Assembly: GCA_964499705.1 (NCBI GenBank)
Contig: CAZCME010000023.1
Span: 59,398 to 79,397 of the forward strand
Direction: 5' to 3'
Length of the DNA: 20,000 nucleotides
Source: an uncultured bacterium
GTDB taxonomy: Bacteria > UBA8481
The notes beneath the pieces are model-generated. The model saw nothing but the letters and a program-made list of their open reading frames with translations. It was not told the DNA's origin and did not search any database. This document shows, piece after piece, positions 1,117 to 20,000 of the stretch. Made by a program: the position numbers and the translations under genes. Positions within the stretch are counted from its first letter, which is position 1. Each line of letters opens with the position of its first letter.

Positions 1117-2181
1117 TTATGACAACAGTTTCGATCTCTCGATCGGGCTCACGATATCCGTCACGCGGACGCCGAAGCTCTCGTCGATGACGACCACCTC
1201 GCCGCGCGCGATGAGCTTCTGGTTCACCAGCAGGTCGACAGGTTCGCCGGCCAGCTTGTCCAGTTCGATGATGGAGCCGGTTCCGAGATCCAGAACGTCG
1301 CGGATCATCATCGTCGCCCGGCCCAGTTCCACCGTCACCTGCATCGGCACGTCCATCAGGATATCGATATTCTTGGACTGGATATCCGTCAGCGTCGGCG
1401 TGAGCGTCGGAAACTGGACGGGCCGGATCGCGTCGGACGCGCGGCTCTCTTCCCGGCCCGCCGGTCTCGCCGTCGGCATCCGTACCGGCGCCTTCGTCCC
1501 CGCGATCGCCCGGCCCGCGGACGAATCCAGGACGAAATACATCGTGCCGTTTCTCAAGCCCTCGATCTCGAACCGGTATCTCGCGAAGACGCGATTTCCC
1601 CGGCCGGCCAGGGGCGGTTCATGACCGTTGTCGATCCGCACGTTCAGATTCCCCGCCGACAGGCTCATCCCCAGTTCACGCGACAGGGCGGTCGCCAGGC
1701 CGCTGACGAGCGAGGAGATCGCCTCCTTCGCGGCCGTCTGGTGCAGCTCGTCCATTTCCACCTGCGCGGAACCGTCGCCCCCCATCATGATGTCGGAAAT
1801 CATGGAGGCATCCGGCAGGGACATCGCGAGGGCGGCTGCTCCCATCGCCTGTCCTCCCATTTCAAAATCGAAGACGACACCATTGGAACCCGTTTCCGTC
1901 TCGATGGCCGCGTCATCGGCCATGTCGATTCCCAGAGGAGTCATCGTCAGCTTGCGGCCAATGAGCGTCGCGGTCACTTCGCATGCGCCGCCGAAACCGC
2001 CGCGGAGGCGATCGGCCAGCGCCTTGAGCTCGTTGGCACCAAGATCGCCATCCTGGATCATCGCGGGTGGAATCGATTGTGCCTGCGTCTTCTGCTGCGT
2101 CGGAGATTCAAACGATGCGCCCGACAGGAGCGCGTCGATTTCCTCCTGTGTCAACATTCCCTCAACCATACCGCGACTCAC
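1117..2181 (-). CDS. fliY: Flagellar motor switch protein FliY (CheC-like middle domain plus FliN/SpoA domain)
   Basis: N-terminal CheY-binding motif LTQEEIDALL; C-terminal FliN domain NIDILMDVPMQVTVELGR...GEVVVIDESFGVRVTDI; 354 aa, too long for plain FliN. The start may be a few codons downstream (MVEG or MLTQ). Confidence 0.88.
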   Translation of the reverse strand: MSRGMVEGMLTQEEIDALLSGASFESPTQQKTQAQSIPPAMIQDGDLGANELKALADRLRGGFGGACEVTATLIGRKLTMTPLGIDMADDAAIETETGSNGVVFDFEMGGQAMGAAALAMSLPDASMISDIMMGGDGSAQVEMDELHQTAAKEAISSLVSGLATALSRELGMSLSAGNLNVRIDNGHEPPLAGRGNRVFARYRFEIEGLRNGTMYFVLDSSAGRAIAGTKAPVRMPTARPAGREESRASDAIRPVQFPTLTPTLTDIQSKNIDILMDVPMQVTVELGRATMMIRDVLDLGTGSIIELDKLAGEPVDLLVNQKLIARGEVVVIDESFGVRVTDIVSPIERSKLLS

Positions 2182-3292
2182 CTCGCTTTCCTTTCGCCAG
2201 GACCAGGTCGTCCGAATAGATGTCCTCCACCTGGCGCGTCAACTGGACGCCCATCTTGGAGCCGCGCACGAGCCCGGGACGGCACTTGAATTTCGGACGG
2301 TTCTGGACAAAGAGCGTCGCTTCCGAGGAGATGGTCTCGTCCATGGGAAGAGTGTCCCCCTTCGAAAGCGTCAGCAGTTCCCGCATCGTGCACTGGGCAT
2401 AGCCCAGGACGGCCACGACCGGCACGGGCGTCTTGGCGAGCCGCCCTTTGATGGACTCGATGGCGTCGCCGGAGCTGCCGCGCCGGATGGCGGAGTACCA
2501 GAACTGCGCGGAGAGCTTGGAGATGATCGGTTCGAGCGTGATGTAGGGGATGCAGAAATTCGTGAGTCCCTCGACCTCTCCGACGCGGGTATCGAGCGTG
2601 ATGAGAACGGCCATGTCATTGGGCGGAACGATCTGGACGAACTGCGGATTCGATTCGAACTGCGACAGGCGCGGCCGGAGGTCAACGACATTCGCCCAGG
2701 CTTCCTTCAGGTCATTCAGGATCCTCAGGATGATCCGTTCGATGACGCCCCGCTCAATGTCGGTCATCTCCCGGGAGAGGCTGATCGGCTTGCCCTTTCC
2801 TCCGAAGAGCCTGTCGATCATGGAAAACGTGATCGCGGGATCCATTTCGAGAACGGCGTTGCCCTTCAGGGGGCTCATGTCGATGACGGCGAGCGTCGTC
2901 GGATTCGGAATCGACTTGATGAATTCCTCGTAGGTGAGCTGATCGACGGAGGAAACGTGGACGCCGACGAGCGTCCGGAGGCGCGCGGACAGCGCGGTCG
3001 TCGTCAGCCGCGCGAAAGTTTCGTGCATCATCTGGAGCGTGCGGATCTGGTCCTTGGAGAACTTGTCGGGGCGCTTGAAGTCGTAGATCTTGATCCGGCG
3101 GCGTTTCTCCGTCTTGGTGCTCGCCTTGATGGGAGCATGCACCTGGGATGTTTCGCCATCGGAATCGGCCATGAGGTCGCCCATGGAATCTCCGCCACCC
3201 CCCAGCGATGGCGCGCCTCCCTTGTCCGCCTCTCCGCTGGATATCGCGGTAAGAAGGGCGTCGATTTCCTCCTGGGAAAGAACCTCGGTCAC
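2162..3292 (-). CDS. fliM: Flagellar motor switch protein FliM
   Basis: Motifs MTEVLSQEEIDALL, IYDFKRPDKFSKDQIRTL, DQLTYEEFI, ESNPQFVQIVPPN and NFCIPY. Confidence 0.97.
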   Translation of the reverse strand: MTEVLSQEEIDALLTAISSGEADKGGAPSLGGGGDSMGDLMADSDGETSQVHAPIKASTKTEKRRRIKIYDFKRPDKFSKDQIRTLQMMHETFARLTTTALSARLRTLVGVHVSSVDQLTYEEFIKSIPNPTTLAVIDMSPLKGNAVLEMDPAITFSMIDRLFGGKGKPISLSREMTDIERGVIERIILRILNDLKEAWANVVDLRPRLSQFESNPQFVQIVPPNDMAVLITLDTRVGEVEGLTNFCIPYITLEPIISKLSAQFWYSAIRRGSSGDAIESIKGRLAKTPVPVVAVLGYAQCTMRELLTLSKGDTLPMDETISSEATLFVQNRPKFKCRPGLVRGSKMGVQLTRQVEDIYSDDLVLAKGKRGESRYG

Positions 3293-6530: not shown

Positions 6531-7025
6531 CTATGCCCACAGGCGATCAATCATTCCGCCGATGGTATGTATGGAACGGATGACGCCGGAAATGAATTCG
6601 TGAAGACCCTGTCGCCATATTTCCTCCGTGGCGGTGCTCTTTACCAAGAGATAGAGCCGGTTCAATTCGACGAAGATTTCGTCAGGAGCGGCGCCGTTCG
6701 CATTCTCTCGAGCCTGTTCGATGCACCGCAGAAGCGATGAACTGTTCGTTTCACCGCGCAGGAGATATTCCGCGACATGTCTGTCGGTAACCGGCAGTCC
6801 CGTTCTGACGAAAGCTTCCCAGAGCCCGAGCGATCGAAGAGCGCTTTCCCACGGCGCGGATGGCGTTCCGCCGGGACCCGCTTCAATGCCGCCATAATAG
6901 CGAACGTCGAGTAGGCGCGCATTTCCTTCGGCGCGCTCGATATACCTGCCGAGCCAGAAGATGCGGTAGGCCGCGCTGCGAGGGGTCGACTGGCCCATGG
7001 AAGGATCGTTATCGGAAGCGGGCAT
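6531..7025 (-). CDS. Alpha-E (DUF403-like) domain protein, single-repeat half-size form, 164 aa
   Basis: Signature AYRIFWLGRYIERAEGNARLLDV and NSSSLLRCIEQARENA; TGATG coupling to the ATP-grasp gene defines start 7025. Confidence 0.88.
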   Translation of the reverse strand: MPASDNDPSMGQSTPRSAAYRIFWLGRYIERAEGNARLLDVRYYGGIEAGPGGTPSAPWESALRSLGLWEAFVRTGLPVTDRHVAEYLLRGETNSSSLLRCIEQARENANGAAPDEIFVELNRLYLLVKSTATEEIWRQGLHEFISGVIRSIHTIGGMIDRLWA

Positions 7026-8422
7026 CACTCGGCCAGGACCCAGGTGTCCTTGATCATGCCGCCGGAGGAACTGTTCACGATGCGCGTGCCCTCCTGCGCC
7101 ACGCGCGTGATACCGCCCGGCATAACCCATGCTCCACCAGGCCGTGATACAACATACGTGCGGATATCGACAAAGGTATCCTTCAGCCGGATCCGATCGC
7201 CCTCGTATTTCGAAAGACAGTGCGTGGAAAAATCGAGGCATTCCTGCGCGATGAAGCGGCCGGGTTCCTCCTCCAGCCGTTTCCGGAACTGGTCGCGCAT
7301 CTCCGCTGTAGCCTCCGGACCGATCAAAAGGTCGTGGCCGCCGTATCCGTCGCGGGATTTCACGACGAGTTTCGCGATATTGTCGAGAATATAGCGCCGT
7401 GACTCCGGATCGAGCGGGGAATACGTCGTCGCGATCGGAAGTATCGGATCCTCTCCCGTGTAGTATTTGACGATCCGCTCCGTGTAGGGAAATGTTCCCT
7501 TGTCGTCGACGACACCGGAACCCCAGGAGTTGGCAAGATTGACCTGCCCCCTCACGTACGCCTGCGAAAGCCCGGGCACGAAGTAGTCCAGATCCTGGAT
7601 CCTGCGGTAAATCACATCGACGCGGCGGCGGGTGTTCGACGTCGAAAGCCAGACGACATGGTCGGAATCGACTTCCAGGTCGACAGGTTCCACAAGCGGA
7701 AGGCCCATGCGCTCCGCGAGTATCTTATGGTCATAGTATGCGGCGTTGTAGGATCCTTCCGTCAGAAGAACGACGAAGGGTTCTCCTTCCCGCGGCGAGA
7801 CGGCCTGCAGAGCTTCCCTCAGGCGCTGGGGATAATCGCCGACGGGGCGCACCGCATAGCCCGTGAAGCATTCCGTGAAGAGCCTCTTGGATATTTCGCG
7901 GTATTTGAGCGCGTACGATGCTCCGGATGGTATACGCGTGTTGTCTTCCAGAATGACGTATCGCCCTTCGCCCATGTGGACGAGATCGGGGCCGTAGATG
8001 TGAATATGAATATCGTGGGGAACGGAAAAGCCGGCGCAATCGGGATAATAATACAAGGAGCTCTTGACGATCTCGTCCGGCACGATCGTCTGCCTGCCGC
8101 GGTAGAGGTCGGCCAGCCATGCGTTCAGGGCCGTGACGCGCTGCGTGAGCCCGCGCTCGATGCGGTCCCAATCCTTCGCGGATATGATCCGGGGAACCCA
8201 GTCGACCGGAAGAATTCTTTCCTCACCGGGCTTCAGAAGAAATGTGACGCCCTCCTGGATGTTCAGTTCGTCAGCTCGCCTGTCCCTGTCCAGCATGGCA
8301 TCGCCGCCGATCGAAGCGAGCGTTGACAAGAGAGTGCGATACAAAGGACGCGGCGCTTCACCCTCGAACATTTCATTGGGGGAGGCGGAGATCGTGCGAG
8401 AATATTCAATCCTGCCTTGCAT
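7025..8422 (-). CDS. Circularly permuted type-2 ATP-grasp protein (DUF404/DUF407-like putative peptide ligase)
   Basis: Motifs PVDWVPRII, IERGLTQR, ILEDNTRIPSGASY, VDVIYRRI, GSGVVDDK, KSRDGYGG, PGGITRV and VNSSSGGMIKDTWV. Confidence 0.93.
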   Translation of the reverse strand: MQGRIEYSRTISASPNEMFEGEAPRPLYRTLLSTLASIGGDAMLDRDRRADELNIQEGVTFLLKPGEERILPVDWVPRIISAKDWDRIERGLTQRVTALNAWLADLYRGRQTIVPDEIVKSSLYYYPDCAGFSVPHDIHIHIYGPDLVHMGEGRYVILEDNTRIPSGASYALKYREISKRLFTECFTGYAVRPVGDYPQRLREALQAVSPREGEPFVVLLTEGSYNAAYYDHKILAERMGLPLVEPVDLEVDSDHVVWLSTSNTRRRVDVIYRRIQDLDYFVPGLSQAYVRGQVNLANSWGSGVVDDKGTFPYTERIVKYYTGEDPILPIATTYSPLDPESRRYILDNIAKLVVKSRDGYGGHDLLIGPEATAEMRDQFRKRLEEEPGRFIAQECLDFSTHCLSKYEGDRIRLKDTFVDIRTYVVSRPGGAWVMPGGITRVAQEGTRIVNSSSGGMIKDTWVLAE

Positions 8423-9205: not shown

Positions 9206-10987
9206 ATGAACGCATCAGAAGAATGGGAACGGAATTTCAAGACTTTGCCCGTTTTGATCCGGCAATGCATTGAAAAAATCAAGACGAATCCAGTTCGCCT
9301 TCGCCAGCTGGAATTTCATCTCGATTCCACATCACGGGAAACTTCCGCATGGAGCATGCTGACTTCGGCCACGGTCATCCTTGGCGAAGCGGGATCTGGT
9401 AAAACACAATCGCTCTCAAAAACTTATGCTCTGCTGGTCGCCCTCGGCGTGGATCCTTCCCGGATCTTCGCTCCTCACGCGACGGCGCACGCCGCCGCCG
9501 CCATGACCATCCGCGTACAAAACCTGATCGACATTCCGTCCTTCTTTCCCGATGCCCGCACGTGGATCACAACCTTCAGGGCCGCGTCACTCCGAATCCT
9601 GCGGGATCATCCTGGTTTTCCATCGCGTCCTGACGTCCTGGTGTCCTTGCGGGATCTGCTGCTGACGGAACGCGGCCAGCGTCCGCGGTATGATGTCCTC
9701 CTGCTCGATGACGCCGAGGATCTGACGCCGATGCAGATTCAGCTCCTGGAACTTCTCCATCACGACACGGCGATCGTCCTTATCGCGGGAGACGCCGATG
9801 CGTCGATCGCCTCATGGCGCGGGGCCGACGGCGGGAGTCTCTCGCGTCTCGTCCGCCTGTTGCCGGGAGCAAGATCGGTGCGCATGGAGCGACGTGGAGG
9901 CAATGACAGGATCACGATGGCCGCGCGTCATCTGAGAAGCGCGAGCATCCAATATGAAGCGGAAAGCTCCCGTTGTCCCGCGACAGCGTTGCGGATCGTT
10001 CAATGCTCATCCCCGCGCTCGGAAGCATCCGCGATCTCCTGCGCCATCTCCGACCTTTTACGCGACGGAGTCGACGCTGCGCGCATCGCGATTCTGGGCC
10101 GGCTCCATTTCGTCCTGGACACCATCGCCGAGACGATGCGCGACATGGGGCTGCGCTGCTCCAAAACACCGCGGGCAGGCCTGCAAATGAACAGCTCCTG
10201 GATCGGCCCGATCGCTCTCCTGGAAGCCTGCGCGCTCGCCGCACGCTCCGAGAGCATTTTTTCTCCCGGCGACGATCTCGCCTTCAACGCCGCCATGCAT
10301 GCGTCGCTGCAATCGCTCGGCGTCGATCCCGGACCTGCCGCTCTTCCGAAGCAGCTTCGATCCGCGTTCCGGAATTTTCGATCCCGCCCGGAGATCTTTC
10401 CAAAGGCGGGCACTGCCTGCCTGCGCGCCCTTGAAAGGATCGCCGCCTTTTCGGACGATGCCGCGCACAGCAGGATCTGGGCTCCCTCCGTGATCCTGGA
10501 CAGAGCGCTCCTCTTCTTTGACGGCAACGACGACGCCGGAGCGCTCCGCGAGTTCGCCAGGTCCATCCGTATCGAAGGGATTGAGGACGGCGTCGAAACG
10601 ATCCTGGAGTTCACCCGCCGCGCACGGGAGCGCTTCGGTTCCTGGGACGAGGGCGCGGAGCCCGGCGGCTCCGGAGATACCGCTCATCTCAACGCCGTCA
10701 GGCTCCTCACTCTCCATGCCTCCAAAGGCCGCTCCTTCGATCACGTTTTCATCGCCGGCTGCGAGGAAACGTTGATCCCCTTTCTCGACGGCGACGACGG
10801 CCGGCCAGGAGCATCCGTAATGGCGGAGGAACAACGGCTGCTGTATGTCGGAGTGTCCACGGCGCGCCTCGGCCTGGTCTTCACATGGTCTTCGACCAGG
10901 AACCATGACGGCAGAATCCGGCGGAGGAACATTTCGCCTTTCCTCGCGGCGCTTCCCCGAGCGCTCGCTACGCGGGAGTCGATCTAG
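9206..10987 (+). CDS. UvrD/PcrA (SF1A) helicase-like protein with degenerate catalytic motifs
   Basis: GEAGSGKT (I), LLDDAED (II), GDADASIASWRGA (III), AILGR (IVa), LTLHASKGRSF (V), EEQRLLYVGVSTAR (VI). Confidence 0.85.
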   Translation: MNASEEWERNFKTLPVLIRQCIEKIKTNPVRLRQLEFHLDSTSRETSAWSMLTSATVILGEAGSGKTQSLSKTYALLVALGVDPSRIFAPHATAHAAAAMTIRVQNLIDIPSFFPDARTWITTFRAASLRILRDHPGFPSRPDVLVSLRDLLLTERGQRPRYDVLLLDDAEDLTPMQIQLLELLHHDTAIVLIAGDADASIASWRGADGGSLSRLVRLLPGARSVRMERRGGNDRITMAARHLRSASIQYEAESSRCPATALRIVQCSSPRSEASAISCAISDLLRDGVDAARIAILGRLHFVLDTIAETMRDMGLRCSKTPRAGLQMNSSWIGPIALLEACALAARSESIFSPGDDLAFNAAMHASLQSLGVDPGPAALPKQLRSAFRNFRSRPEIFPKAGTACLRALERIAAFSDDAAHSRIWAPSVILDRALLFFDGNDDAGALREFARSIRIEGIEDGVETILEFTRRARERFGSWDEGAEPGGSGDTAHLNAVRLLTLHASKGRSFDHVFIAGCEETLIPFLDGDDGRPGASVMAEEQRLLYVGVSTARLGLVFTWSSTRNHDGRIRRRNISPFLAALPRALATRESI

Positions 10988-12078
10988 GACCGGGAAGGCG
11001 CGCGAACGGCGCCAAGAATGATGGCGGCCGCGCCCGCGACACGGGCAATGATGAGAGCATTGGCCGAGAGCGACAGGACGGCCAGGGCCACGCCAAGCGC
11101 CGGCACGACATGTTTCGCGAGACCATACTCGTTCCGCGTGAAGATCATGGCCCCCATCAACGCCACATAGGCCGCGAGGCCGCACAAACCGGATTCCGCA
11201 TAAAACATCATGTAGCACGATTCGTACACCGAGGAGGGACGCGATCCCGGACCCGCTCCGGTTAATACAGGCGTTTCCCTCAATACAATGGTCCACGAAG
11301 TGAGCCGGTCCACATGAGGTCCGCTGTAATCGCGGCGCACCTGAAGGATATCCTTCCAACGGCTGATCGTGCCGTACGGGGCGAACACGAGAAGCGCGAG
11401 CCCGACTGCCGCCACGAGAAGGAGCTCCCGATAACGCCGCATGACGATGAGAATCCTGCCGTGCGACACGGCGGCGGCGGCAAACGAGGCGCGCGAGCCG
11501 GACAGGAGTATGGAAACAAAACTCGCGAGCGCGGGCCATGACGAGGCGCCGATGGAAGCCGTCGCGAAGACCGAAAGAATCACCAGCGCTCCCGCCACAT
11601 GATTCGCTTCGCCCGAAAACACTCCTGAGTTGAAAACCCTGTGATATTCCGTGACCGTGAAGAATTGGATGTACGCCATTTCGCCGAGCGACCAGGCCAG
11701 CAACAGGACGATGCAGGCCACGGCGCTCATCCTGAGCGTTCCTGCCGTTTCGGAGCAATGCGCCGTGATACAGTAGAGCACCGCCAGCTCCGCCAGCCTC
11801 CCCACCATGAGAGCGCATCCTGCTCCACGTTCGTTCATGCCCGTCGCCAGGGAAATCAGTGCGGCCACGGAGGAGATCATGAGAAGCGTCAGATAAATTT
11901 TCTCCATGGCGTTCAGCCGTATCGCGCGCGCTCGAATCCAGGAAGGGATGAACCAGGCGAGGACGGCGGCCGCGAGGAGGTCTCCCAGCCGCACCGGTCC
12001 CAGCACGGGCGGCGAAAAGACGAACGCCGGCAGAAGAAGAGACGGCAGATATTTTCGATTCTTCCAGTTCCATTCCAT
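10984..12078 (-). CDS. O-antigen ligase (WaaL/Wzy_C)-like polytopic membrane protein
   Basis: Many TM segments; GVFSGEANHVAG, LLSGSRAS, DRLTSW...PVLTGAGPG and YAESGLCG. Confidence 0.72.
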   Translation of the reverse strand: MEWNWKNRKYLPSLLLPAFVFSPPVLGPVRLGDLLAAAVLAWFIPSWIRARAIRLNAMEKIYLTLLMISSVAALISLATGMNERGAGCALMVGRLAELAVLYCITAHCSETAGTLRMSAVACIVLLLAWSLGEMAYIQFFTVTEYHRVFNSGVFSGEANHVAGALVILSVFATASIGASSWPALASFVSILLSGSRASFAAAAVSHGRILIVMRRYRELLLVAAVGLALLVFAPYGTISRWKDILQVRRDYSGPHVDRLTSWTIVLRETPVLTGAGPGSRPSSVYESCYMMFYAESGLCGLAAYVALMGAMIFTRNEYGLAKHVVPALGVALAVLSLSANALIIARVAGAAAIILGAVRAPSRS

Positions 12079-12086
12079 CGAATGAA

Positions 12087-12536
12087 TCAGGGTTCACCGC
12101 CATCCGGTTGAACGCTCAGGATGATGCCCTCCATCGCATACGTGGACGTGTGAAACATGAAGGAGGCTCCGGGCAGGACTCGCCCGTAGTTGTACCAGAT
12201 CGCTCCTTCGGGATCGACCCTGGCTGTCAATCGAAATACCGCCCTGGGCGAGTTCGTGTCGGTATCCGCCAGTGCGAGGCGCACGAATTCCGCCCTGTCC
12301 CGCCCTCCTTCCGGTTCTTCAAAATCTCCCGCGCAGGGCATTTCTGATAAGGGCGGCCGCCGCCATGGATAGGGCACGGCCAGTTCCACCATAAACGTCC
12401 GGCGAAGTGTCAAATCGGTGAGATGGCGGGAGACCGCGTCCGGATGGCGAATCCTGATGAACAAGCCGGCGAGGATGGCCAGGAGCGCGAGAAAAATCGC
12501 GGCATCCGTCAGACGAATCGATTTCAGTATCCGCAT
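12087..12536 (-). CDS. Membrane-anchored hypothetical protein, DUF4330-like
   Basis: N-terminal TM segment (DAAIFLALLAILAGLF); C-terminal beta motif GRVLPGASFMFHTSTYAMEGIILSV. Confidence 0.6.
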   Translation of the reverse strand: MRILKSIRLTDAAIFLALLAILAGLFIRIRHPDAVSRHLTDLTLRRTFMVELAVPYPWRRPPLSEMPCAGDFEEPEGGRDRAEFVRLALADTDTNSPRAVFRLTARVDPEGAIWYNYGRVLPGASFMFHTSTYAMEGIILSVQPDGGEP

Positions 12537-12607: not shown

Positions 12608-13111
12608 ATGATTCGAGCCCTTCGATATCTCGGCGACCCGGTGCTCCGGAAGCACGCCGATCCCGTGAAGAAAATCGGACCCGAGATCCGCAAGCTCATC
12701 GACGACATGTTCGAGACGATGGACGCGGCCCACGGCATCGGCCTCGCGGCTCCCCAGGTCGGCGTGATGAAACGGGTGATCGTGACCAACGTTCCGGAGG
12801 AGGACGGCTCCTTCACGCGCGGAGCCCTGATCAATGCCGAGATTGTCTCCTTCGAGGAAGAGACGGAGCTGTTCGAGGAAGGATGCCTCTCCATCCCGCA
12901 TGTGCGCGCGGACGTGGACCGGCCGGTCGGCATCCGCGTGCGCGCGATCGACGGCAACGGCAGGAAAGTCGATTTTCTCGCGTCCGATCTCTATGCGCGC
13001 TGCATCCAGCACGAAGTCGACCACTTGAACGGCGTTCTCTTCATCGACCGCGCCGGCATATCGGAGAAGAAAGCCCTGAAGATGATGCAGACGGCCGAAG
13101 AGGACGAGTAA
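12608..13111 (+). CDS. def: Peptide deformylase
   Basis: Motifs GIGLAAPQ, EGCLS and QHEVDHLNG. Confidence 0.98.
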   Translation: MIRALRYLGDPVLRKHADPVKKIGPEIRKLIDDMFETMDAAHGIGLAAPQVGVMKRVIVTNVPEEDGSFTRGALINAEIVSFEEETELFEEGCLSIPHVRADVDRPVGIRVRAIDGNGRKVDFLASDLYARCIQHEVDHLNGVLFIDRAGISEKKALKMMQTAEEDE

Positions 13112-13120
13112 GCTTTTCGC

Positions 13121-14053
13121 ATGAAGATCGTCTTCGCGGGGACTCCCGAGTTCGCATCCGTCATTCTCCAGGAGCTTCTCGACCACGATGACGCCTTCGA
13201 GTTGACGGGCGTTCTCTCTCAGCCGGCGCGGCCGCGCGGCAGGGGGCTTCATGTCGAACCGTCCGAAGTGGAGCGGCTCGCGCGAGAACGAAGCCTGCCG
13301 CTCGCGACTCCCGCCGCCTGGAACCAGGACGCCTCGGACGCGCTCGCTTCGTGGGCTCCCGACATCCTGGTGACGGCCGCCTACGGCATGATCCTGCCCC
13401 GCGAAGCCTTCTCCGCGCCTCCCCTGGGCGCGATCAACGTGCATGCGTCGCTGCTGCCGCGATGGCGCGGAGCGGCGCCCATCCAGCGCGCCATCGAGGC
13501 GGGCGATCCCGCGACAGGCATCTCCATCTTTCAGATCGGCGAAGGGGTCGACACCGGGCCGGTCTACGCGCGCGCCTCGACACCGATCGAGCCGGACGAA
13601 ACGTCGGCAGATCTGTCCCGGAGGCTCGCGGCGCTCGGCGCGGAACTTCTGCCGGAAACGCTGAAGGGGATCTCATCGGGAGCGCTCCGTGCCGAAGCGC
13701 AATCCGCCGAAGGTGTGACGAGAGCGAGGAAGTTGCGAAAGGTGGAAGGGCACCTTTCATGGAGCGAACCGGCATCCGTCATTCATCGGAAATGGCGGGC
13801 GTATCATCCCTGGCCCGGAGTCACGATCGGAGACATCAAGCTGATCGAGATCGAACGCACGAGCCCCGAAAATGACGGGGAAGGCGGACACGAGGAACAT
13901 CCCGGCGAAATTCTCTCGGTCTCTCCTCTCCTTGTCGCCTCATCCCACGGGTCTCTGCGGCTCAACCTGGTCCAGCGCAGCGGAGGCCGCGTCATGAACG
14001 GCGCCGACTACGCGAACGGCCGAAGGCTCGCGGTGGGAGACATTCTCTCATGA
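13121..14053 (+). CDS. fmt: Methionyl-tRNA formyltransferase
   Basis: MKIVFAGTPEF, AAYG and NVHASLLPRWRGAAPIQRAI; follows def. Confidence 0.97.
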   Translation: MKIVFAGTPEFASVILQELLDHDDAFELTGVLSQPARPRGRGLHVEPSEVERLARERSLPLATPAAWNQDASDALASWAPDILVTAAYGMILPREAFSAPPLGAINVHASLLPRWRGAAPIQRAIEAGDPATGISIFQIGEGVDTGPVYARASTPIEPDETSADLSRRLAALGAELLPETLKGISSGALRAEAQSAEGVTRARKLRKVEGHLSWSEPASVIHRKWRAYHPWPGVTIGDIKLIEIERTSPENDGEGGHEEHPGEILSVSPLLVASSHGSLRLNLVQRSGGRVMNGADYANGRRLAVGDILS

Positions 14054-14853
14054 TCGACCTTCACTCACACATCATTCCCGGCGTGGACGACGGCTCTCCC
14101 GATTACGAGACCTCCCTGGCCATGCTGGAAATCGCCGCGGAGGACGGGATCAGGACGATCGCCGGAACGCCTCATTTCATTCCCGGCGCTTTCGCGCCGT
14201 CCGCCGCCGAGGTCCGCACAGCGGTCGGGCTGCTGAAGGAAAAGGTGAAGGCGGCGGGGATCGATATCGAGATCACGGGAGCCCACGAGGTGAGGACCGC
14301 CGCGGGACTCTTGCAAAAACTCCGGAATGATGAAATACTCACCTACGATAAGTCGAAACGGTATCTGCTCCTCGAAATGCCGGGTTCCAGCATCCCGGCC
14401 TGGATGGACAAGCTGATCTTCGAGCTCGAGGTGGGCGACATCATCCCTGTCATTGCGCATCCCGAACGCAACGCGGGCGTGATCAAGAATCCCATGCTCT
14501 TTTACGAGCTCGTTCAGAAGGGGTGCCGCTCGCAGATCACGGCGGGATCAATCACGGGCCGGTTCGGCGAGCGCGTCCGGGAAACGGCGCATCTGTTGCT
14601 GCGCCACCGGATGGCGCATATCGTCGCCTCCGACGCCCACGACGCGGAGGACCGGACTCCGGTGCTCTCGATGGCGCGAGCCACGGTCGCGGAGATGCTG
14701 GGGGAGCCCACGGCGAAAGCGCTCTTTGAAGTGAATCCCAGGAGGATTCTCGACGGCGATGAGTTTTACGCGCCGGATCCGAAGCCGATCGAGGAAGATG
14801 AAGAAAAGGACAGTGCTCTCTTCGGATTGTTCCGGCGGCTGTTCGAAAAGTAG
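14050..14853 (+). CDS. CpsB/CapC/YwqE-family PHP-domain tyrosine phosphatase
   Basis: MIDLHSHIIPGVDDG, TPH, IAHPERN and ASDAH. Confidence 0.92.
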   Translation: MIDLHSHIIPGVDDGSPDYETSLAMLEIAAEDGIRTIAGTPHFIPGAFAPSAAEVRTAVGLLKEKVKAAGIDIEITGAHEVRTAAGLLQKLRNDEILTYDKSKRYLLLEMPGSSIPAWMDKLIFELEVGDIIPVIAHPERNAGVIKNPMLFYELVQKGCRSQITAGSITGRFGERVRETAHLLLRHRMAHIVASDAHDAEDRTPVLSMARATVAEMLGEPTAKALFEVNPRRILDGDEFYAPDPKPIEEDEEKDSALFGLFRRLFEK

Positions 14854-14876
14854 GAAACGGAAGTGATTGATAGACC

Positions 14877-16706
14877 ATGTGCGGAATAGTCGGATACATC
14901 GGGGGGCGTGAAGCTCTGCCGATCCTCATCGAAGGCCTGAAGCGGCTCGAATACCGCGGATATGATTCCGCGGGCTGCGCCCTCATGGCGCCGGGCGGGA
15001 TGTGGATCCGCAAGTCCGTCGGCAAGATCCGCGAGCTGGAGATGCGCATCAACGGCGAAAGTCCCTCCAGCATGATCGGCATCGCGCACACGAGATGGGC
15101 GACGCACGGCGAGCCGAGCGACGCCAACGCTCATCCCCACGCGGACGAGGCCGGCATCATCTCGGTCGTTCACAACGGCATCATCGAGAATTACTCCACG
15201 CTGAAAACGCTCCTGCAGAAGGACGGCCACGTCTTCGCCTCCCAGACCGACACCGAGGTCCTCGTCCACCTCATCGAGAAATTCCACGAGGAGGACGATC
15301 TCCTGACATCCGTCCGGAAGGCCCTGGCCATGGTCCACGGCACATACGGCATCATCGTGGCTTCAGCCAAGGAACCGAACCTCCTGATCGCCGCGCGCCA
15401 TGGATCGCCGCTCGTCCTGGGGATCGGGGAGGGCGAATTCTTCCTCGCCTCCGATGTCGCACCGATCGTTCCCTACACCCGGAACGTGATCTACTTCGAA
15501 GACGACGAGATCGTCCTGGTGCGTCGCGAGGGATACAAGACGACCACGCTCTCCGCGGTGCCGGTCCTGAAATCCATCAGCACCGTCGACTGGAACATCG
15601 AGGAGATCGAGAAGGGCGGCTTCGCGCATTTCATGCTGAAGGAGATCTACGAGCAGCCCGAGACCGTCGCGAACGCGATGCGCGGAAGGATGAAGCTGTC
15701 CGAGGGGACGTCCCAGCTCTCCGGCCTCAACCTGAATCTCGAAGCGCTCCGCCAGATCAAGCGCGTCATCATCACGGGCTGCGGCACGTCGTGGCACGCG
15801 GGGCTCGTCGGGGAATATGTCATCGAGGAGATCGCGCGCATCCCCGTGGAGGTGGAGTACGCCTCGGAGTTCCGGTACCGCAATCCGATCATCGACGACT
15901 CGACCGTCGTCTTTCTCATCAGCCAGTCCGGCGAAACCGCCGACACGCTCGCCGCGCTCCGCGAGGCAAAGGGCAAGGGCGCGCTGCCGCTCGGCATCGT
16001 CAACGTCGTCGGATCCACGATCGCCCGCGAGTCATCCGGAGGCGTCTATATCCATGCCGGCCCGGAGATCGGCGTGGCGTCGACGAAAGCCTTCACGTCG
16101 CAGATCACGGTCCTCATGCTGATCGGACTCCTTCTCGGCCGACAGCGCGACCTTTCCGCCGCCGAGGGAAAGAAGATCCTCCGGGGGCTCCTGGACATCC
16201 CGCACAAGATCAAGAAGATCCTGGCGAAGTCGGAGCAGATCGAGGCGGTCGCGGAATGCTACGCCGACGCGGAGAATTTCCTCTACCTCGGCCGTGGTAT
16301 CAACTTTCCCGTCGCCCTGGAAGGCGCGTTGAAGCTGAAGGAGATCAGCTATATTCACGCGGAAGGGTATCCGGCCGCGGAAATGAAGCACGGCCCGATC
16401 GCGCTCATCGATCAGAACATGCCGTGCGTCGTCATCGCCATCAACGACAGCGCGTATGAGAAGGTGCTCTCGAACATCCAGGAGATCCGGGCTCGAAAAG
16501 GAAAAGTGATCGCCATCGCCTCGGAAGGCGACCGCGAAATCTCCAAGTTCGCCGATCATGTCATCGAGATCCCTCAGACGCATCATCTCCTGACGCCGCT
16601 CCTGACCGTCATCCCCCTCCAGCTCCTGGCCTACCACATTGCCGTCAAGCGCGGCTGCGATGTGGACCAGCCCCGCAACCTCGCCAAGTCCGTCACCGTC
16701 GAATGA
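14877..16706 (+). CDS. glmS: Glutamine--fructose-6-phosphate aminotransferase (isomerizing)
   Basis: MCGIVG, LEYRGYDSAG, HTRWATHG, SQSGETADT and [11 protein letters not shown]. Confidence 0.99.
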   Translation: MCGIVGYIGGREALPILIEGLKRLEYRGYDSAGCALMAPGGMWIRKSVGKIRELEMRINGESPSSMIGIAHTRWATHGEPSDANAHPHADEAGIISVVHNGIIENYSTLKTLLQKDGHVFASQTDTEVLVHLIEKFHEEDDLLTSVRKALAMVHGTYGIIVASAKEPNLLIAARHGSPLVLGIGEGEFFLASDVAPIVPYTRNVIYFEDDEIVLVRREGYKTTTLSAVPVLKSISTVDWNIEEIEKGGFAHFMLKEIYEQPETVANAMRGRMKLSEGTSQLSGLNLNLEALRQIKRVIITGCGTSWHAGLVGEYVIEEIARIPVEVEYASEFRYRNPIIDDSTVVFLISQSGETADTLAALREAKGKGALPLGIVNVVGSTIARESSGGVYIHAGPEIGVASTKAFTSQITVLMLIGLLLGRQRDLSAAEGKKILRGLLDIPHKIKKILAKSEQIEAVAECYADAENFLYLGRGINFPVALEGALKLKEISYIHAEGYPAAEMKHGPIALIDQNMPCVVIAINDSAYEKVLSNIQEIRARKGKVIAIASEGDREISKFADHVIEIPQTHHLLTPLLTVIPLQLLAYHIAVKRGCDVDQPRNLAKSVTVE

Positions 16707-18271
16707 ATTCCGGCGACACAGACGAGACGAGGGGCAACCGCTCCTTCAATGCTCAGCAGGGTGAAGGCGGCAGCAGAAGGGAACGGAACGGGAACATGGC
16801 CGATGAGATCCCGAGCATCGCGCGGGATCGGAATGGCAACATGGGGAATGCGGTACCGGAGGGCGAATCACGGGGCCGGGATTTCTCCGGAGGAGGACAG
16901 CGCACGGGTGCTCCCGGTTCCGGAGAAACGCGGCGCGATCGCGACCGCCACCAGCGGCATCGCCGCGGACGAGGAGGCCGGGATCAGCGCGGAGGCGGCA
17001 GGCCGAATCGCGGTCCGCAGCAGGGCGGCCCCCGCAACGACAACAATCCAAATCGGCAAAGCGGGCAGGGTGGGCAGGGCGGCCAGAGCGGCCAGAGCGG
17101 AATGCCCGGCGGACAACCGAGAGACAATCAGCAGTATCGGCAGAACCAGGGCCAGAATCGACAAGGGCGTGGAGACCGGCCGCATTACGGAGCGCGGCAT
17201 TCGAATCGAGACCGTTCCGGTCAAGACCGTTCGGGTCAAGATCGATCCGGTCAAGACCGTGGCGGGCGGGACCGATCCGGAGGACCGCGCCACCATTCGT
17301 TCGGCGGGCGCCATCAGGGTGGACCACGGCGATTCGACAGGCAGGGCGGAGGTGATCGAGCGCACCGCCGTCCCGATCGCAGAAAGGCGGACGTCATCCG
17401 CGAGCTGGAGAAGAAGTTCGATCAGCTCACCGCCATCGATCCGCTCCAGAGATTCCAGCTGGAGACCATCAAGACGGAGATGACGACACGCGTCGTCGAC
17501 CTCTTCGCTCCGATCGGCCGCGGTCAGCGCGCCATGATCGTCGCGCCGCCCAAGGCCGGCAAGACGCTTCTTCTCCAGAAAATGGCCCTGGCCATCCACA
17601 CCAATCATCCCGAAGTGCGCGTCATCTGTCTCCTCGTGGACGAACGTCCCGAAGAAGTGACGGATTTCCGGCGTAGCGTTCCCGCGGAAGTGATCGCCTC
17701 CTGTTCCGACCAGACCGTCGACGAACATGTCGCCGCGGTGGAGGACACGTTCCTGACGGCGCGCGAGTCCGTGCTGCAGGGCAAGGATGTCATCATCTTC
17801 CTCGATTCGCTGACGCGCCTCGCGCGCGCCTACAACCAGTACACGGAGAGCTCCGGCAAGACGCTCTCCGGCGGCCTCGATTCCGCCGCGATGCAGCGCC
17901 CGCGCAAGTTCTTCGGAGCCGCCAGGAACGTCGACCGTGGAGGCAGCCTCACGGTCGTCGCCACCGCGCTCATAGAAACCGGCAGCAGGATGGACGACAT
18001 CATCTTTCAGGAATTCAAGGGCACCGGAAATACGGAGATCGTTCTCTCCCGCAAGCTCGCAGAGCAGCGCATCTTTCCGGCCATCGATCTGAACGCGACC
18101 GGGACGCGACGGGAGGAGCGCCTCTTCCCGCCGGACCTCATGATGAAAGTGAGAATGCTCCGCCGCGCCCTGAATCCTCTCCCGCCCATCGAAGCCATGC
18201 ACCTGCTCCTCGACAAGCTTTCCAAGACCGAGACGAACGAGGATTTCCTCAAGAGCATCAACGTCAGTTGA
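16703..18271 (+). CDS. rho: Transcription termination factor Rho homolog with a low-complexity N-terminus and no recognisable OB-fold RNA-binding domain
   Basis: [51 protein letters not shown] and TGTRREE; ATGA overlap with glmS. Confidence 0.93.
17210..17284 (+). repeat. Five 15-bp in-frame tandem repeats encoding (DRSGQ)3[10 protein letters not shown] within rho
   Basis: gaccgttccggtcaa / gaccgttcgggtcaa / gatcgatccggtcaa / gaccgtggcgggcgg / gaccgatccggagga. Confidence 0.9.
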
Positions 18272-18274
18272 AAG

Positions 18275-18336
18275 GGATGAAGGAAAGACAAGGATGAAGG
18301 ATGAAGAAATTCATCCCTCATCCTTCATCCCTCATC
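18275..18336. repeat. Inverted heptamer tandem repeat (GGATGAA)n...(YTCATCC)n
   Basis: GGATGAA at 18275, 18292 and 18299; GAAA loop; then TTCATCC CTCATCC TTCATCC CTCATC at 18310-18336. Confidence 0.9.
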
Positions 18337-19853
18337 GTTATAAATCATGGCGCCTGAGAGGCCGAATTCTGGACGGCTCCGGCGCTCCGGAATTCCCGGG
18401 CGTCATCACGATCCACGGCGATGCGATCGAATCGGTCACCACTCAACAGGATGACCATGGGGATGTCGATTTGGACCTCCCGTCGGACCTTGTCATCACC
18501 CCCGGTTTCATCGACATCCACTCGCACGGCGATCACTTTCTCCTCGTCGATCCCTCGGCCGCGTCGAAACTGATGCAGGGCGTGACGACGGACGTCATCG
18601 GCAACTGCGGATATTCCGCGGCGCCTCTCTCCCCCGCCATGCGCGAGCGGAGAACGCGCGGCCTCTCGCGGTACGGACTGGTTCCCCGCTGGAGCTCCTT
18701 CGAAGATTACCTGCGCAGGGTGGAGGACGCGCAGCCCGCGGTGAACGTCGCCGCATTGGCCGGCCATGGCACGCTCCGCACATTCGCGGGAATCCCGGAG
18801 GATCGCGCCGCATCGCAATCGGAACGCCTGAGGCTGGCGCGCGAGGCGGCGAGAGCTTTGAAGGCCGGAGCCTTCGGGATCACGACCGGCCTCGTGTATG
18901 CGCCGGGAAAATTCGCGGACCAGGCGGAACTGAGCGAAATGCTGCGCCCCGTCTCGGAACGAAACGCGCTCTATGCGGCCCATCTCCGCGATGAAGGCGA
19001 TCTTGTCGTTGAGGCCCTGCAGGAAGCGCTGGACCTTGTTCGAACGGCCCGGGTGCGATTTCAGTATTCGCACATCAAGACCTGGGGACGGGCGAACTGG
19101 AAGAAGCGTCCGCGCCTTCTCCAGCTCCTGCGCGCCGCCCGCGCGGAAGGGCTCGACATCGCGACGGATCTCTATCCCTACACGTCCGCCGCCACCGAGC
19201 TTCTCGCCGGGCTCGGGCTCTCCGGCGAACGCGATCCTGAAGTCATTCGCAAGCGGGTCGCGGAGATGGCGGCGAAGGATTCCTCGTGGAGCAAGCGCAT
19301 TCGTTTTCTGACGGCGCGCGAAGGCGAATTGTCCGGCAGGAGATTATCGCATTGGAAAAAACCAGCGGAGTTCCTTGTCGGCATCCTCGAGAAGGACCCG
19401 CATATCTCGGCCGCGTTCACGGAAATGTCGGAAGCGAATGTCGTCGCTTTCATGAAGGAGCCCTATTCCGCCATTGGTTCCGACGCCTCCAACCGGAACG
19501 TGACCGGCCCATTCGCGAACGAAAAGCCGCACCCCCGGGCCTTCGGAACATTCCCCCGGTTCCTGGCTCGCTATGTCCGCGACAAGCACATACTGAGCCT
19601 CCCGGAGGCCGTCCGGAAAGTGACATTGCTCCCGGCATCTCGGCTCGGCTTGACCGACCGGGGCTTGATCCGTTCCGGCCGGAAGGCCGACATCGTCGTC
19701 TTCCATCCCGGCCGGATCGAGGACCGGTCCGATTTCAGAAATCCGCAGGTCTTCCCCACGGGAATGGAACATGTGTGGGTCAATGGCAGGCCATCCGTGC
19801 GCCATGGCGAACTGACGGCTGACCGATCAGGCAGGGTTCTGCGCGCCGGATAA
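18294..19853 (+). CDS. N-acyl-D-amino-acid deacylase (D-aminoacylase) family amidohydrolase
   Basis: ILDGSG, PGFIDIHSH, GVTTDVIGNCG, AHLRDEG, IGSD, PHPRAFGTFPR and VWVNG. Confidence 0.92.
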   Translation: MKDEEIHPSSFIPHRYKSWRLRGRILDGSGAPEFPGVITIHGDAIESVTTQQDDHGDVDLDLPSDLVITPGFIDIHSHGDHFLLVDPSAASKLMQGVTTDVIGNCGYSAAPLSPAMRERRTRGLSRYGLVPRWSSFEDYLRRVEDAQPAVNVAALAGHGTLRTFAGIPEDRAASQSERLRLAREAARALKAGAFGITTGLVYAPGKFADQAELSEMLRPVSERNALYAAHLRDEGDLVVEALQEALDLVRTARVRFQYSHIKTWGRANWKKRPRLLQLLRAARAEGLDIATDLYPYTSAATELLAGLGLSGERDPEVIRKRVAEMAAKDSSWSKRIRFLTAREGELSGRRLSHWKKPAEFLVGILEKDPHISAAFTEMSEANVVAFMKEPYSAIGSDASNRNVTGPFANEKPHPRAFGTFPRFLARYVRDKHILSLPEAVRKVTLLPASRLGLTDRGLIRSGRKADIVVFHPGRIEDRSDFRNPQVFPTGMEHVWVNGRPSVRHGELTADRSGRVLRAG

Positions 19854-19885
19854 GGGTTCGCGAAAGAATAACTTCCCAGTACCGA

Positions 19886-19988
19886 GGCCGAGCGAAACGG
19901 CGGATGGCAAGGCGCAACGACGACGACACCCTTGCAACAGCCGGGTGTCGAGGAGTAGGAACGCAGCCCGCCGCCGTTGCAGCCGGCC
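19886..19988. repeat. Nested inverted-repeat intergenic element (structured RNA or dispersed repeat)
   Basis: Nested pairs GGCCG/CGGCC (19886-19890/19984-19988), AACGGCGG/CCGCCGTT (19896-19903/19971-19978) and CGACACCC/GGGTGTCG (19924-19931/19943-19950), separated by purine-rich internal loops. Confidence 0.55.
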
Positions 19989-20000
19989 GACTGCCGGACG

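Follow-up and report, generated by a model that had tools for sequence, protein, structure and literature searches.

Canonical Rho, in the textbook account, loads on RNA through a crown of OB folds. The 20,000-nucleotide stretch of DNA analysed here (the window; positions 59,398 to 79,397 of contig CAZCME010000023.1, assembly GCA_964499705.1) comes from a metagenome-assembled draft genome, in 45 contigs, of an uncultured groundwater bacterium of the lineage UBA8481, and it encodes at 16703..18271 (+ strand) a Rho paralog that has the motor and lacks the OB fold. This OB-less paralog is conserved throughout the sampled members of its lineage, retains the catalytic residues of the motor, evolves under purifying selection and is accompanied by a canonical Rho encoded elsewhere in the genome.

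The closest described systems are reduced or extended Rho factors. Moreira et al. (2024, Nucleic Acids Research 52:8979, PMC11347177) defined a functional Rho by its RNA-binding and ATPase domains, and in their supplement 28 sequences, each from a different organism, make up a 'Rho-like ATPase domain' group, with cultivated Pseudomonadota/Myxococcota, Verrucomicrobiota and Chloroflexi as sources. The short second Rhos named 'Group B', or Types 4 and 2d, go back to D'Heygere (2013), as summarised in PMC11347177. In Mycobacterium tuberculosis Rho, productive RNA recruitment depends on an Arg/Gly-rich disordered insertion (1759 Rut sites with the full-length protein vs 47 without the insertion), which is described as poorly conserved, disordered when RNA-bound and needed for structured Rut sites (PMC13650167). 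An RNA-binding subdomain in the same Rho is also described in the title of PMC4167861.

Architecture of the OB-less Rho Paralog

The open reading frame (ORF) encodes 522 amino acids (aa), starting with ATG and ending with a stop codon at 18269-18271. Residues 1-225 (16703..17377) constitute a low-complexity basic tail, delimited by composition, the predicted local distance difference test (pLDDT), a negative Pfam result and an open frame. Glycine (23%) and arginine (20%) dominate this tail, followed by glutamine (10.7%), aspartate (8.4%), asparagine (7.6%) and serine (7.1%); I, L, M, F, V, W and Y together amount to only 13 residues, and the net charge is +19. Two peptides are repeated within it. 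The (S/G)GQ peptide occurs in four copies at residues 120-131 and is encoded by a 9-bp tandem repeat at 17060..17100 (4.6 copies with 84% matches in TRF), while DRSGQ occurs in three copies at residues 170-184 with two variants up to residue 194, the whole run being encoded by a 15/30-bp tandem repeat at 17209..17280 (TRF score 83/93). A preliminary description of this DNA, made from its letters alone, had read residues ~1-230 as almost entirely R, G, Q, D, N and S with GQ and DRSGQ repeats, and both the composition and the repeats were confirmed. Its term 'RGG/Gln-rich' is better replaced by 'G/R/Q/D/N/S-rich', because the literal RGG motif occurs just three times in the tail.

The same description held that the OB fold appeared to be missing, and neither a Pfam match nor an AlphaFold2 fold of this kind was found in residues 1-240. 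The Pfam search of the paralog at E<=1 gave no match to Rho_N or Rho_RNA_bind (PF07498, PF07497) and returned PF00006 at residues 262-464, some weak AAA-type matches and nothing else. In the AlphaFold2 model, computed from a 14-row alignment, residues 1-223 have pLDDT values below 50 and no secondary structure, followed by a helix at residues 226-240 and then a RecA-type domain. Some gene callers start the paralog downstream of 16703, and its ESM Atlas entry begins at residue 32 (read as M; window position 16796). The true start is nevertheless favoured to be 16703 on sequence grounds, because the ATGA overlap with the upstream glmS gene is kept in 5/5 genomes of the lineage and the 'MN/MT' starts are conserved.

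The helix at residues 226-240 (17378..17422) runs into the Rho connector, where F239 aligns to F133 of Escherichia coli Rho (chain 1pv4_A), in agreement with the earlier assignment. Its R233 is near-invariant and its E236 invariant in the clade alignment A1, which comprises 14 sequences (5 from genomes and 9 metagenomic proteins). From residue 239 to 522 (17417..18268) the protein is a Rho C-terminal motor according to NF006886, the PDB Rho chains and Foldseek. The NF006886 Rho model was matched with 413.9 bits against a cut-off of 315, residues 236-518 lying on model positions 130-412. The full-length equivalog TIGR00767 gave 409.9 bits, below its cut-off of 509.45, with only model positions 131-414 aligned, and the paralog_Rho2 model NF041509 gave 364.7 bits, below its cut-off of 628, with alignment to positions 77-359 of 360. 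PDB Rho chains match the motor at E ~1e-93, and the Foldseek matches to solved Rho chains (E ~1e-27, ~50-57% identity) cover ~271-292 columns, which correspond to the motor only.

E. coli numbering was derived from the alignment to 1pv4_A, with an offset of +103 after a 3-residue indel, and the roles attached to the E. coli residues (P-loop, valve, finger and loops) are those given in the literature for E. coli Rho. The Walker A motif or P-loop, PPKAGKT, occupies residues 282-288 (17546..17566) and includes the equivalents of K181, K184 and T185; P282, P283, K284, G286, K287 and T288 are invariant in A1, and position 285 is A or T. The catalytic glutamate E314 (17642..17644) is flanked by D313 and R315, all three being invariant. 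Across the 14 sequences K284, K287, T288, E314, D368, R372, K386, R456 and R469 never vary, and they correspond in this order to E. coli K181, K184, T185, E211, D265 (Walker B), R269, K283, R353 and R366; among them, R456 is the Arg valve (18068-18070) and R469 the Arg finger (18107..18109). In total 122 columns of A1 are invariant, all catalytic residues included. The bicyclomycin-pocket positions checked (L208 and G337) are retained as well.

Departures from E. coli Rho lie in the pore loops. In the R-loop, residues 425-429 (17975..17989; E. coli 322-326), K326 is conservatively replaced by arginine (R429), which is likewise present in the canonical Rho of the same genome and in chain 8hsj. 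In the Q-loop, residues 381-391 (17843..17875; E. coli 278-288), K386 is kept and three positions differ, namely P279->E382, V284->T387 and T286->S389. The Walker A, catalytic Glu, Q-loop, R-loop and Arg-finger regions, which had been called intact, are all present in the alignments with these substitutions.

Conservation, Selection and the Canonical Rho of the Same Genome

Five genomes of this phylum-level group, the window genome (G000) included, were available in the genome collection. The OB-less paralog is present in 5/5 of them with a motor identity of 76-100%, and no paralog-type match was found in the other 36 bacterial genomes sampled. The stop codon of glmS overlaps the paralog ATG in every one of the five (16703..16706 in the window), always in the context GAATGA. 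The tails of the orthologs range from 71 to 246 aa and are mutually unalignable, yet each of them is R/G-rich and carries a positive net charge (+12 to +29), as is usual for disordered regions in which selection maintains composition. No stop codon interrupts the frame between the glmS stop and the motor in any of the 5 orthologs (57-232 codons), which has a joint chance of ~10^-6.3 when the orthologs are treated as independent.

The motor of the paralog is under purifying selection. By the Nei-Gojobori method, its ratio of nonsynonymous to synonymous substitution rates (dN/dS) against the window genome is 0.149 (G002), 0.215 (G003) and 0.144 (G004). Three of the four paralog pairs were thus measurable, the exception being the G001 pair, whose synonymous sites are saturated. 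The corresponding values for canonical Rho are 0.050 (G002) and 0.027 (G004).

Exactly one PF07497 match exists in the window genome, on a contig (C13) unlinked to the paralog. It belongs to a canonical Rho (ORF 622-2130, - strand) with both Rho_N (60.6 bits) and Rho_RNA_bind (116.3 bits), so the paralog status assumed in the preliminary description is borne out by a second, canonical rho. The two motors are 58% identical in the window genome and 57-59% identical overall. Canonical Rho is whole in 4/5 genomes of the lineage and lies in pieces at contig ends in G003. In the window genome it bears, before Rho_N, an initial region of 91 aa that is Ala/Asp/Glu-rich and mildly acidic (net -7), and the equivalent regions in G004 and G001 have 53 and 90 aa with net charges of -1 and -2, respectively. 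In the window genome this initial region is opposite in charge to the paralog tail (-7 vs +19).

Phylogeny and Origin

The motor tree was based on 135 sequences, of which 15 came from loci and 120 were the full set of database matches listed; the partial canonical copy of G003 and one further locus (L015, in which the search pattern caught no ORF) were left out, and the database rows were thinned at 85% identity to 46 rows. IQ-TREE recovered a canonical clade that includes the lineage's own Rho (support 100/100), a clade of short Rhos with an OB fold and without Rho_N (93/85), the paralog clade with 10 rows (99/95), a second OB-less clade with 9 rows (97/93), and a lone G/Q-rich OB-less sequence on a long branch, P0015. 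Among the near-identical relatives of P0015 that the thinning had removed are three matches labelled Elusimicrobia/Elusimicrobiota. A single branch (83/84) separates the truly OB-less rows, 20 in number, from the others. Precomputed Pfam had labelled six more rows 'no OB' that fall among the OB-bearing short forms; in a Pfam rescan, P0045 and P0084 gave weak sub-threshold OB matches and P0073 gave none, P0037 lacks part of its N-terminus, and the remaining two are P0083 and P0103.

Forcing the paralog clade together with the lineage's canonical Rho cost 46.2 log-likelihood units (p-value of the approximately unbiased test, p-AU, 0.027); this grouping was a prior hypothesis, yet it was tested after a first tree had been seen. 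A quick tree with the ATP synthase beta of the window genome as outgroup and without P0015 placed the non-canonical rows in one clade (99 in the Shimodaira-Hasegawa-like approximate likelihood-ratio test, SH-aLRT), inside which the OB-less rows formed one clade (86); its root, which falls inside canonical Rho, is unreliable, the outgroup branch being ~10 changes per site. At the residue level, 20 positions are fixed differently between the paralog clade and canonical Rho. Six derived states (E. coli 231, 232, 294, 298, 333 and 385) occur in the paralog clade and also in both the short forms with an OB fold and the second OB-less clade, and at least two derived positions (255 and 346) are common to the OB-less rows only.

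Because the trees place the paralog apart from the lineage's own Rho and beside the OB-less and Group B Rhos, the duplication looks old, and the paralog appears to descend from an old secondary-Rho lineage that had already diverged from canonical Rho. This secondary lineage would have lost Rho_N first and the OB fold later, long before the present hosts diverged. The replacement of the OB fold by a disordered region, suggested in the preliminary description, is thus not a recent event, as the trees put the gene in an old secondary-Rho lineage.

Occurrence in Other Lineages

OB-less Rhos also occur elsewhere. Pfam scanning of 42 database matches left 36 without Rho_RNA_bind at E<=0.1, and the N-termini of the OB-less matches are G/Q/R-rich, P/R/A-rich or R/G-rich. 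Source names, available for a few of them, are Elusimicrobia/Elusimicrobiota and Candidatus Eisenbacteria. In a profile search of 1.84 billion representatives in 50%-identity clusters, of which the best 150 were considered, the paralog clade corresponds to one cluster (P0011, 648.7 bits) and the next match drops to 447 bits. Of the best 150 clusters, 25 showed no OB fold with a small OB model, and Pfam gave weak OB matches in 5/23 of those scanned; a clear R-rich tail joined to a motor occurs in ~7 of the best 150, the rest being truncated or having unrelated N-termini. Two representative proteins have unrelated domains ahead of the Rho motor: P0199 has Biotin_lipoyl and 4HB_MCP (a sensor), and P0128 has a GFO/IDH/MocA C-terminal domain. 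These combinations may be real fusions or chimeric contigs.

Further leads, and leads only, come from the ESM Atlas, where neighbour clusters with PF00006 alone are labelled Methylomirabilota, Myxococcota and Verrucomicrobiota (features, 0.84-0.87) and one structural neighbour is labelled Eiseniibacteriota (template modelling score, TM, 0.61). A locus from the genome-contig scan, in a metagenome-assembled genome of Lentisphaeraceae with 49% identity, was ruled out as an OB-bearing short Rho. The metagenome-contig scan, run with A1-derived patterns that are generically Rho, found no further OB-less loci among 80: a Rho ORF was present in 75/80, of which 74 have an OB match and one is cut at the contig end.

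A wider proposal can be put forward with considerable reserve. Motor-only Rhos with basic disordered tails might, instead of being isolated relics, form one old family that arose from Group B by a single loss of the OB fold. Such a family would provide a second RNA-loading route, independent of the primary binding site, and would work alongside canonical Rho in numerous phyla, most of them uncultured (this lineage, Elusimicrobiota, Eisenbacteria, probably Myxococcota, and others), with production in this lineage tied to glmS by the stop/start overlap. It is judged possible and somewhat improbable.

Gene Neighbourhood

The paralog is the fourth of five genes on the + strand (13121-19853) that are separated by tiny gaps or overlap. 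The first is fmt (13121-14053), whose end is overlapped by the start of a gene for a CpsB/CapC-like PHP phosphatase (14050-14853). Then follows glmS for glutamine--fructose-6-phosphate transaminase (14877..16706), which matches TIGR01135 with 829.6 bits against a cut-off of 418 and contains SIS and GATase domains, and the series ends after the paralog with an amidohydrolase-family gene (18294..19853, predicted ATG at 18294; Pfam Amidohydro_3/_1). The order glmS, paralog, amidohydrolase was found by tblastn in 3/4 related loci (L007, L009 and L010; not L008). Since the paralog start overlaps the glmS stop, translation of the paralog is probably coupled to that of glmS. No sigma-70-like promoter was found in 12800-20000, and Rfam gave 0 matches to a glmS ribozyme or any other known RNA in the window.

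A stable hairpin at 18273..18332 (+ strand) begins 2 bases past the paralog stop and covers the predicted amidohydrolase ATG. Its folding energy is -31 kcal/mol (z -5.3, with 0/200 shuffles as good); it is built on the words GGATGAA / TTCATCC, has no clear U-tract on the + strand, and its exact core pattern occurs once in the genome. A reading of the locus as a defence system was rejected, as PADLOC gave only a 20.6-bit P-loop match.

Elsewhere in the window, genes for flagellar switch proteins lie on the - strand, one FliN-like (1117-2181) and one for FliM (2162-3292). A circularly permuted ATP-grasp protein (7025-8422, -) adjoins an Alpha-E domain protein (6531-7241, -); the two ORF calls overlap by ~200 bases, and one start is probably miscalled. 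A UvrD-like helicase ORF (9206-10987, +) overlaps an opposite-strand ORF of 681 aa (10058-12103) without a Pfam match.

Proposed Function and Alternative Explanations

The account preferred here, with a confidence that falls just short of evens, is that the paralog is a second Rho, conserved and functional, in which the helix bundle and the OB fold, the two RNA-binding modules of the N-terminus, have been lost and the whole motor has been kept, and that it would act as an active ring translocase capturing RNA by its basic tail. The paralog would form its own six-subunit ring, in which six long flexible basic tails could capture RNA electrostatically with little sequence preference and so replace the primary binding site. 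The captured RNA would enter the central pore with its intact Q- and R-loops, through which ATP would drive it in the 5'->3' direction, and the ring might then dislodge RNA polymerase or unwind RNA-DNA hybrids. The place of this ring would be alongside canonical Rho, which prefers C, and its targets would probably be structured or G+C-rich transcripts to which the OB-fold crown binds poorly; the paralog would probably be made by translational coupling to glmS. The insertion of M. tuberculosis Rho is the nearest experimental support, by analogy, for RNA capture by the tail. Of the interpretation in the preliminary description, the paralogy, the missing OB fold and the intact motor are supported; RNA binding by the tail, phase separation and mixed hexamers are conjectural.

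Several observations weigh against this account. M. tuberculosis Rho retains its OB fold, as seen in the chain architecture, and its disordered region works with that fold and not instead of it. The Q-loop changes, including P279->E, could alter or weaken pore function. The paralog motor evolves ~3-5x faster than the canonical Rho motor, and none of the 9 sequencing runs listed is an RNA run that carries the gene. The literature search turned up no experiment on a motor-only Rho, a 2025 review (PMC12360218) contains 0 occurrences of 'Rho-like', 'atypical' or 'heterohexamer' and does not mention motor-only Rhos, and the supplement of PMC11347177 states of motor-only sequences, without a test, that they 'are not functional Rho factors'.

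An unlikely alternative is a modulatory subunit that joins canonical Rho in mixed rings, where fewer OB folds and added basic tails would tune target choice, activity or condensates. The paralog always co-occurs with a canonical Rho, the motors are 57-59% identical, the mildly acidic initial region of canonical Rho (net -7) contrasts with a tail of +19, and hetero-hexamers have been raised for other short second Rhos in PMC11347177. However, the genes are unlinked and their divergence is ancient, a tree joining them is rejected (p-AU 0.027), the paralog clade differs from canonical Rho at the 20 fixed positions, and the paralog motor retains all residues for autonomous catalysis; a complex prediction for the canonical motor (216-503) and the paralog motor (226-522) gave a score of 0.09 against a mark of 0.32, and carries no weight either way. 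To a similarly low degree it is conceivable that the paralog is an RNA or RNA-DNA remodelling motor apart from termination, serving R-loop removal, RNA turnover or ribonucleoprotein remodelling with the tail as a nucleic-acid or condensate anchor. The N-terminal domain of canonical Rho, which is absent from the paralog, is thought to mediate contacts within Rho-RNA polymerase pre-termination complexes, and Arg/Gly-rich tails such as this one are typical of proteins that bind RNA generally and of those that form condensates. The clade also has pore-loop changes fixed on its own. Computation, however, does not distinguish such a motor from the termination-capable translocase preferred above, and the neighbours (fmt, the CpsB-like gene, glmS and the amidohydrolase gene) give no clue to RNA metabolism.

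Two further explanations would deny the paralog any role. It could be a decaying, non-functional remnant of a Rho duplicate, as might be expected of a protein without the domain considered essential for Rho loading, and the supplement of PMC11347177 calls motor-only sequences 'not functional Rho factors'; but dN/dS values of 0.14-0.22, the 122 invariant columns in 14 sequences with the catalytic residues among them, intact frames in 5/5 genomes and the conserved overlapping start make decay very improbable. An assembly or binning artefact, in which sequence was deleted near 17390 or a Rho fragment was joined into a chimera with some low-complexity stretch, would come to mind with a metagenome-assembled draft of 45 contigs (the window contig being C23), yet it deserves practically no credence. 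The tail/motor junction is bridged without a single difference by public-run contigs of two studies, X1 record 6 (17094-18017) and X3 record 19 (17157-17484), of which only the second study counts as independent because the best-matching run could come from the source sample itself. The same architecture also recurs in the 4 related genomes as well as in 9 metagenomic proteins. An assembly deletion near 17390 and a strain-specific lesion had both been named as possible refutations of the preliminary description; the first is countered by these contigs and genomes, and the second by the relatives, which are likewise OB-less in the same glmS context in 5/5 genomes.

A conserved crown-less Rho motor beside a normal Rho amounts to a natural test of whether a ring can load by a basic disordered tail alone, and it raises a second question, the purpose of such a ring. 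The paralog clade is well defined, and its tails vary naturally in length (71-246 aa), which experiments could exploit. The conservation data argue against the dismissal of motor-only Rhos as non-functional in the published catalogue (PMC11347177). The established view of Rho stays unchanged until motor-only activity is measured.

Comparison with Known Rho Systems

Compared with canonical Rho of the E. coli type, the paralog is homologous in the motor from the connector F133 to the C-terminus, and the catalytic, pore-loop and bicyclomycin-pocket residues checked are all in place except R-loop K326->R and Q-loop positions 279/284/286. Canonical Rho has a helix bundle (PF07498) and an OB fold (PF07497), whereas the paralog is without both and hence without the primary binding site.

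The Group B short Rhos are, like the paralog, second copies beside a full-length Rho that have lost the N-terminal domain. They share derived motor residues with the paralog clade and fall into one clade with it that excludes canonical Rho (99 SH-aLRT). In contrast to the paralog, they keep the OB fold: the NF041509 model, aligned to the canonical Rho of the window genome, spans the OB fold from position 2, and the OB region accounts for its first 76 positions.

Disordered regions of a comparable kind occur in OB-bearing Rhos. M. tuberculosis Rho has an N-terminal Arg/Gly-rich, poorly conserved disordered region resembling the paralog tail, and the disordered insertions in the Rhos of Bacteroides thetaiotaomicron and Clostridium botulinum can likewise be likened to it; both of the latter proteins keep the OB fold.

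The closest match in architecture is the 'Rho-like ATPase domain' group, in which, according to the supplement of PMC11347177, the sole detectable domain is the Rho ATPase with its bicyclomycin pocket and the essential residues are conserved, as in the paralog. Its Myxococcales members start with a 'D/G/R rich' domain and reach 530 aa at the longest, the same architecture and size as the paralog, in which Pfam and NCBIfam detect only the Rho ATPase domain behind a D/G/R-rich initial region. The likeness is one of architecture and size only. The novelty implied in the preliminary description was accordingly too high, motor-only Rhos, some with a D/G/R-rich start, being listed in the supplement of PMC11347177. 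The motor-only Rho architecture is already in print, and the paralog clade is a distinct and well-supported addition to that kind, for which conservation, selection, phylogeny and the probable coupling to glmS have been worked out here beyond the published group.

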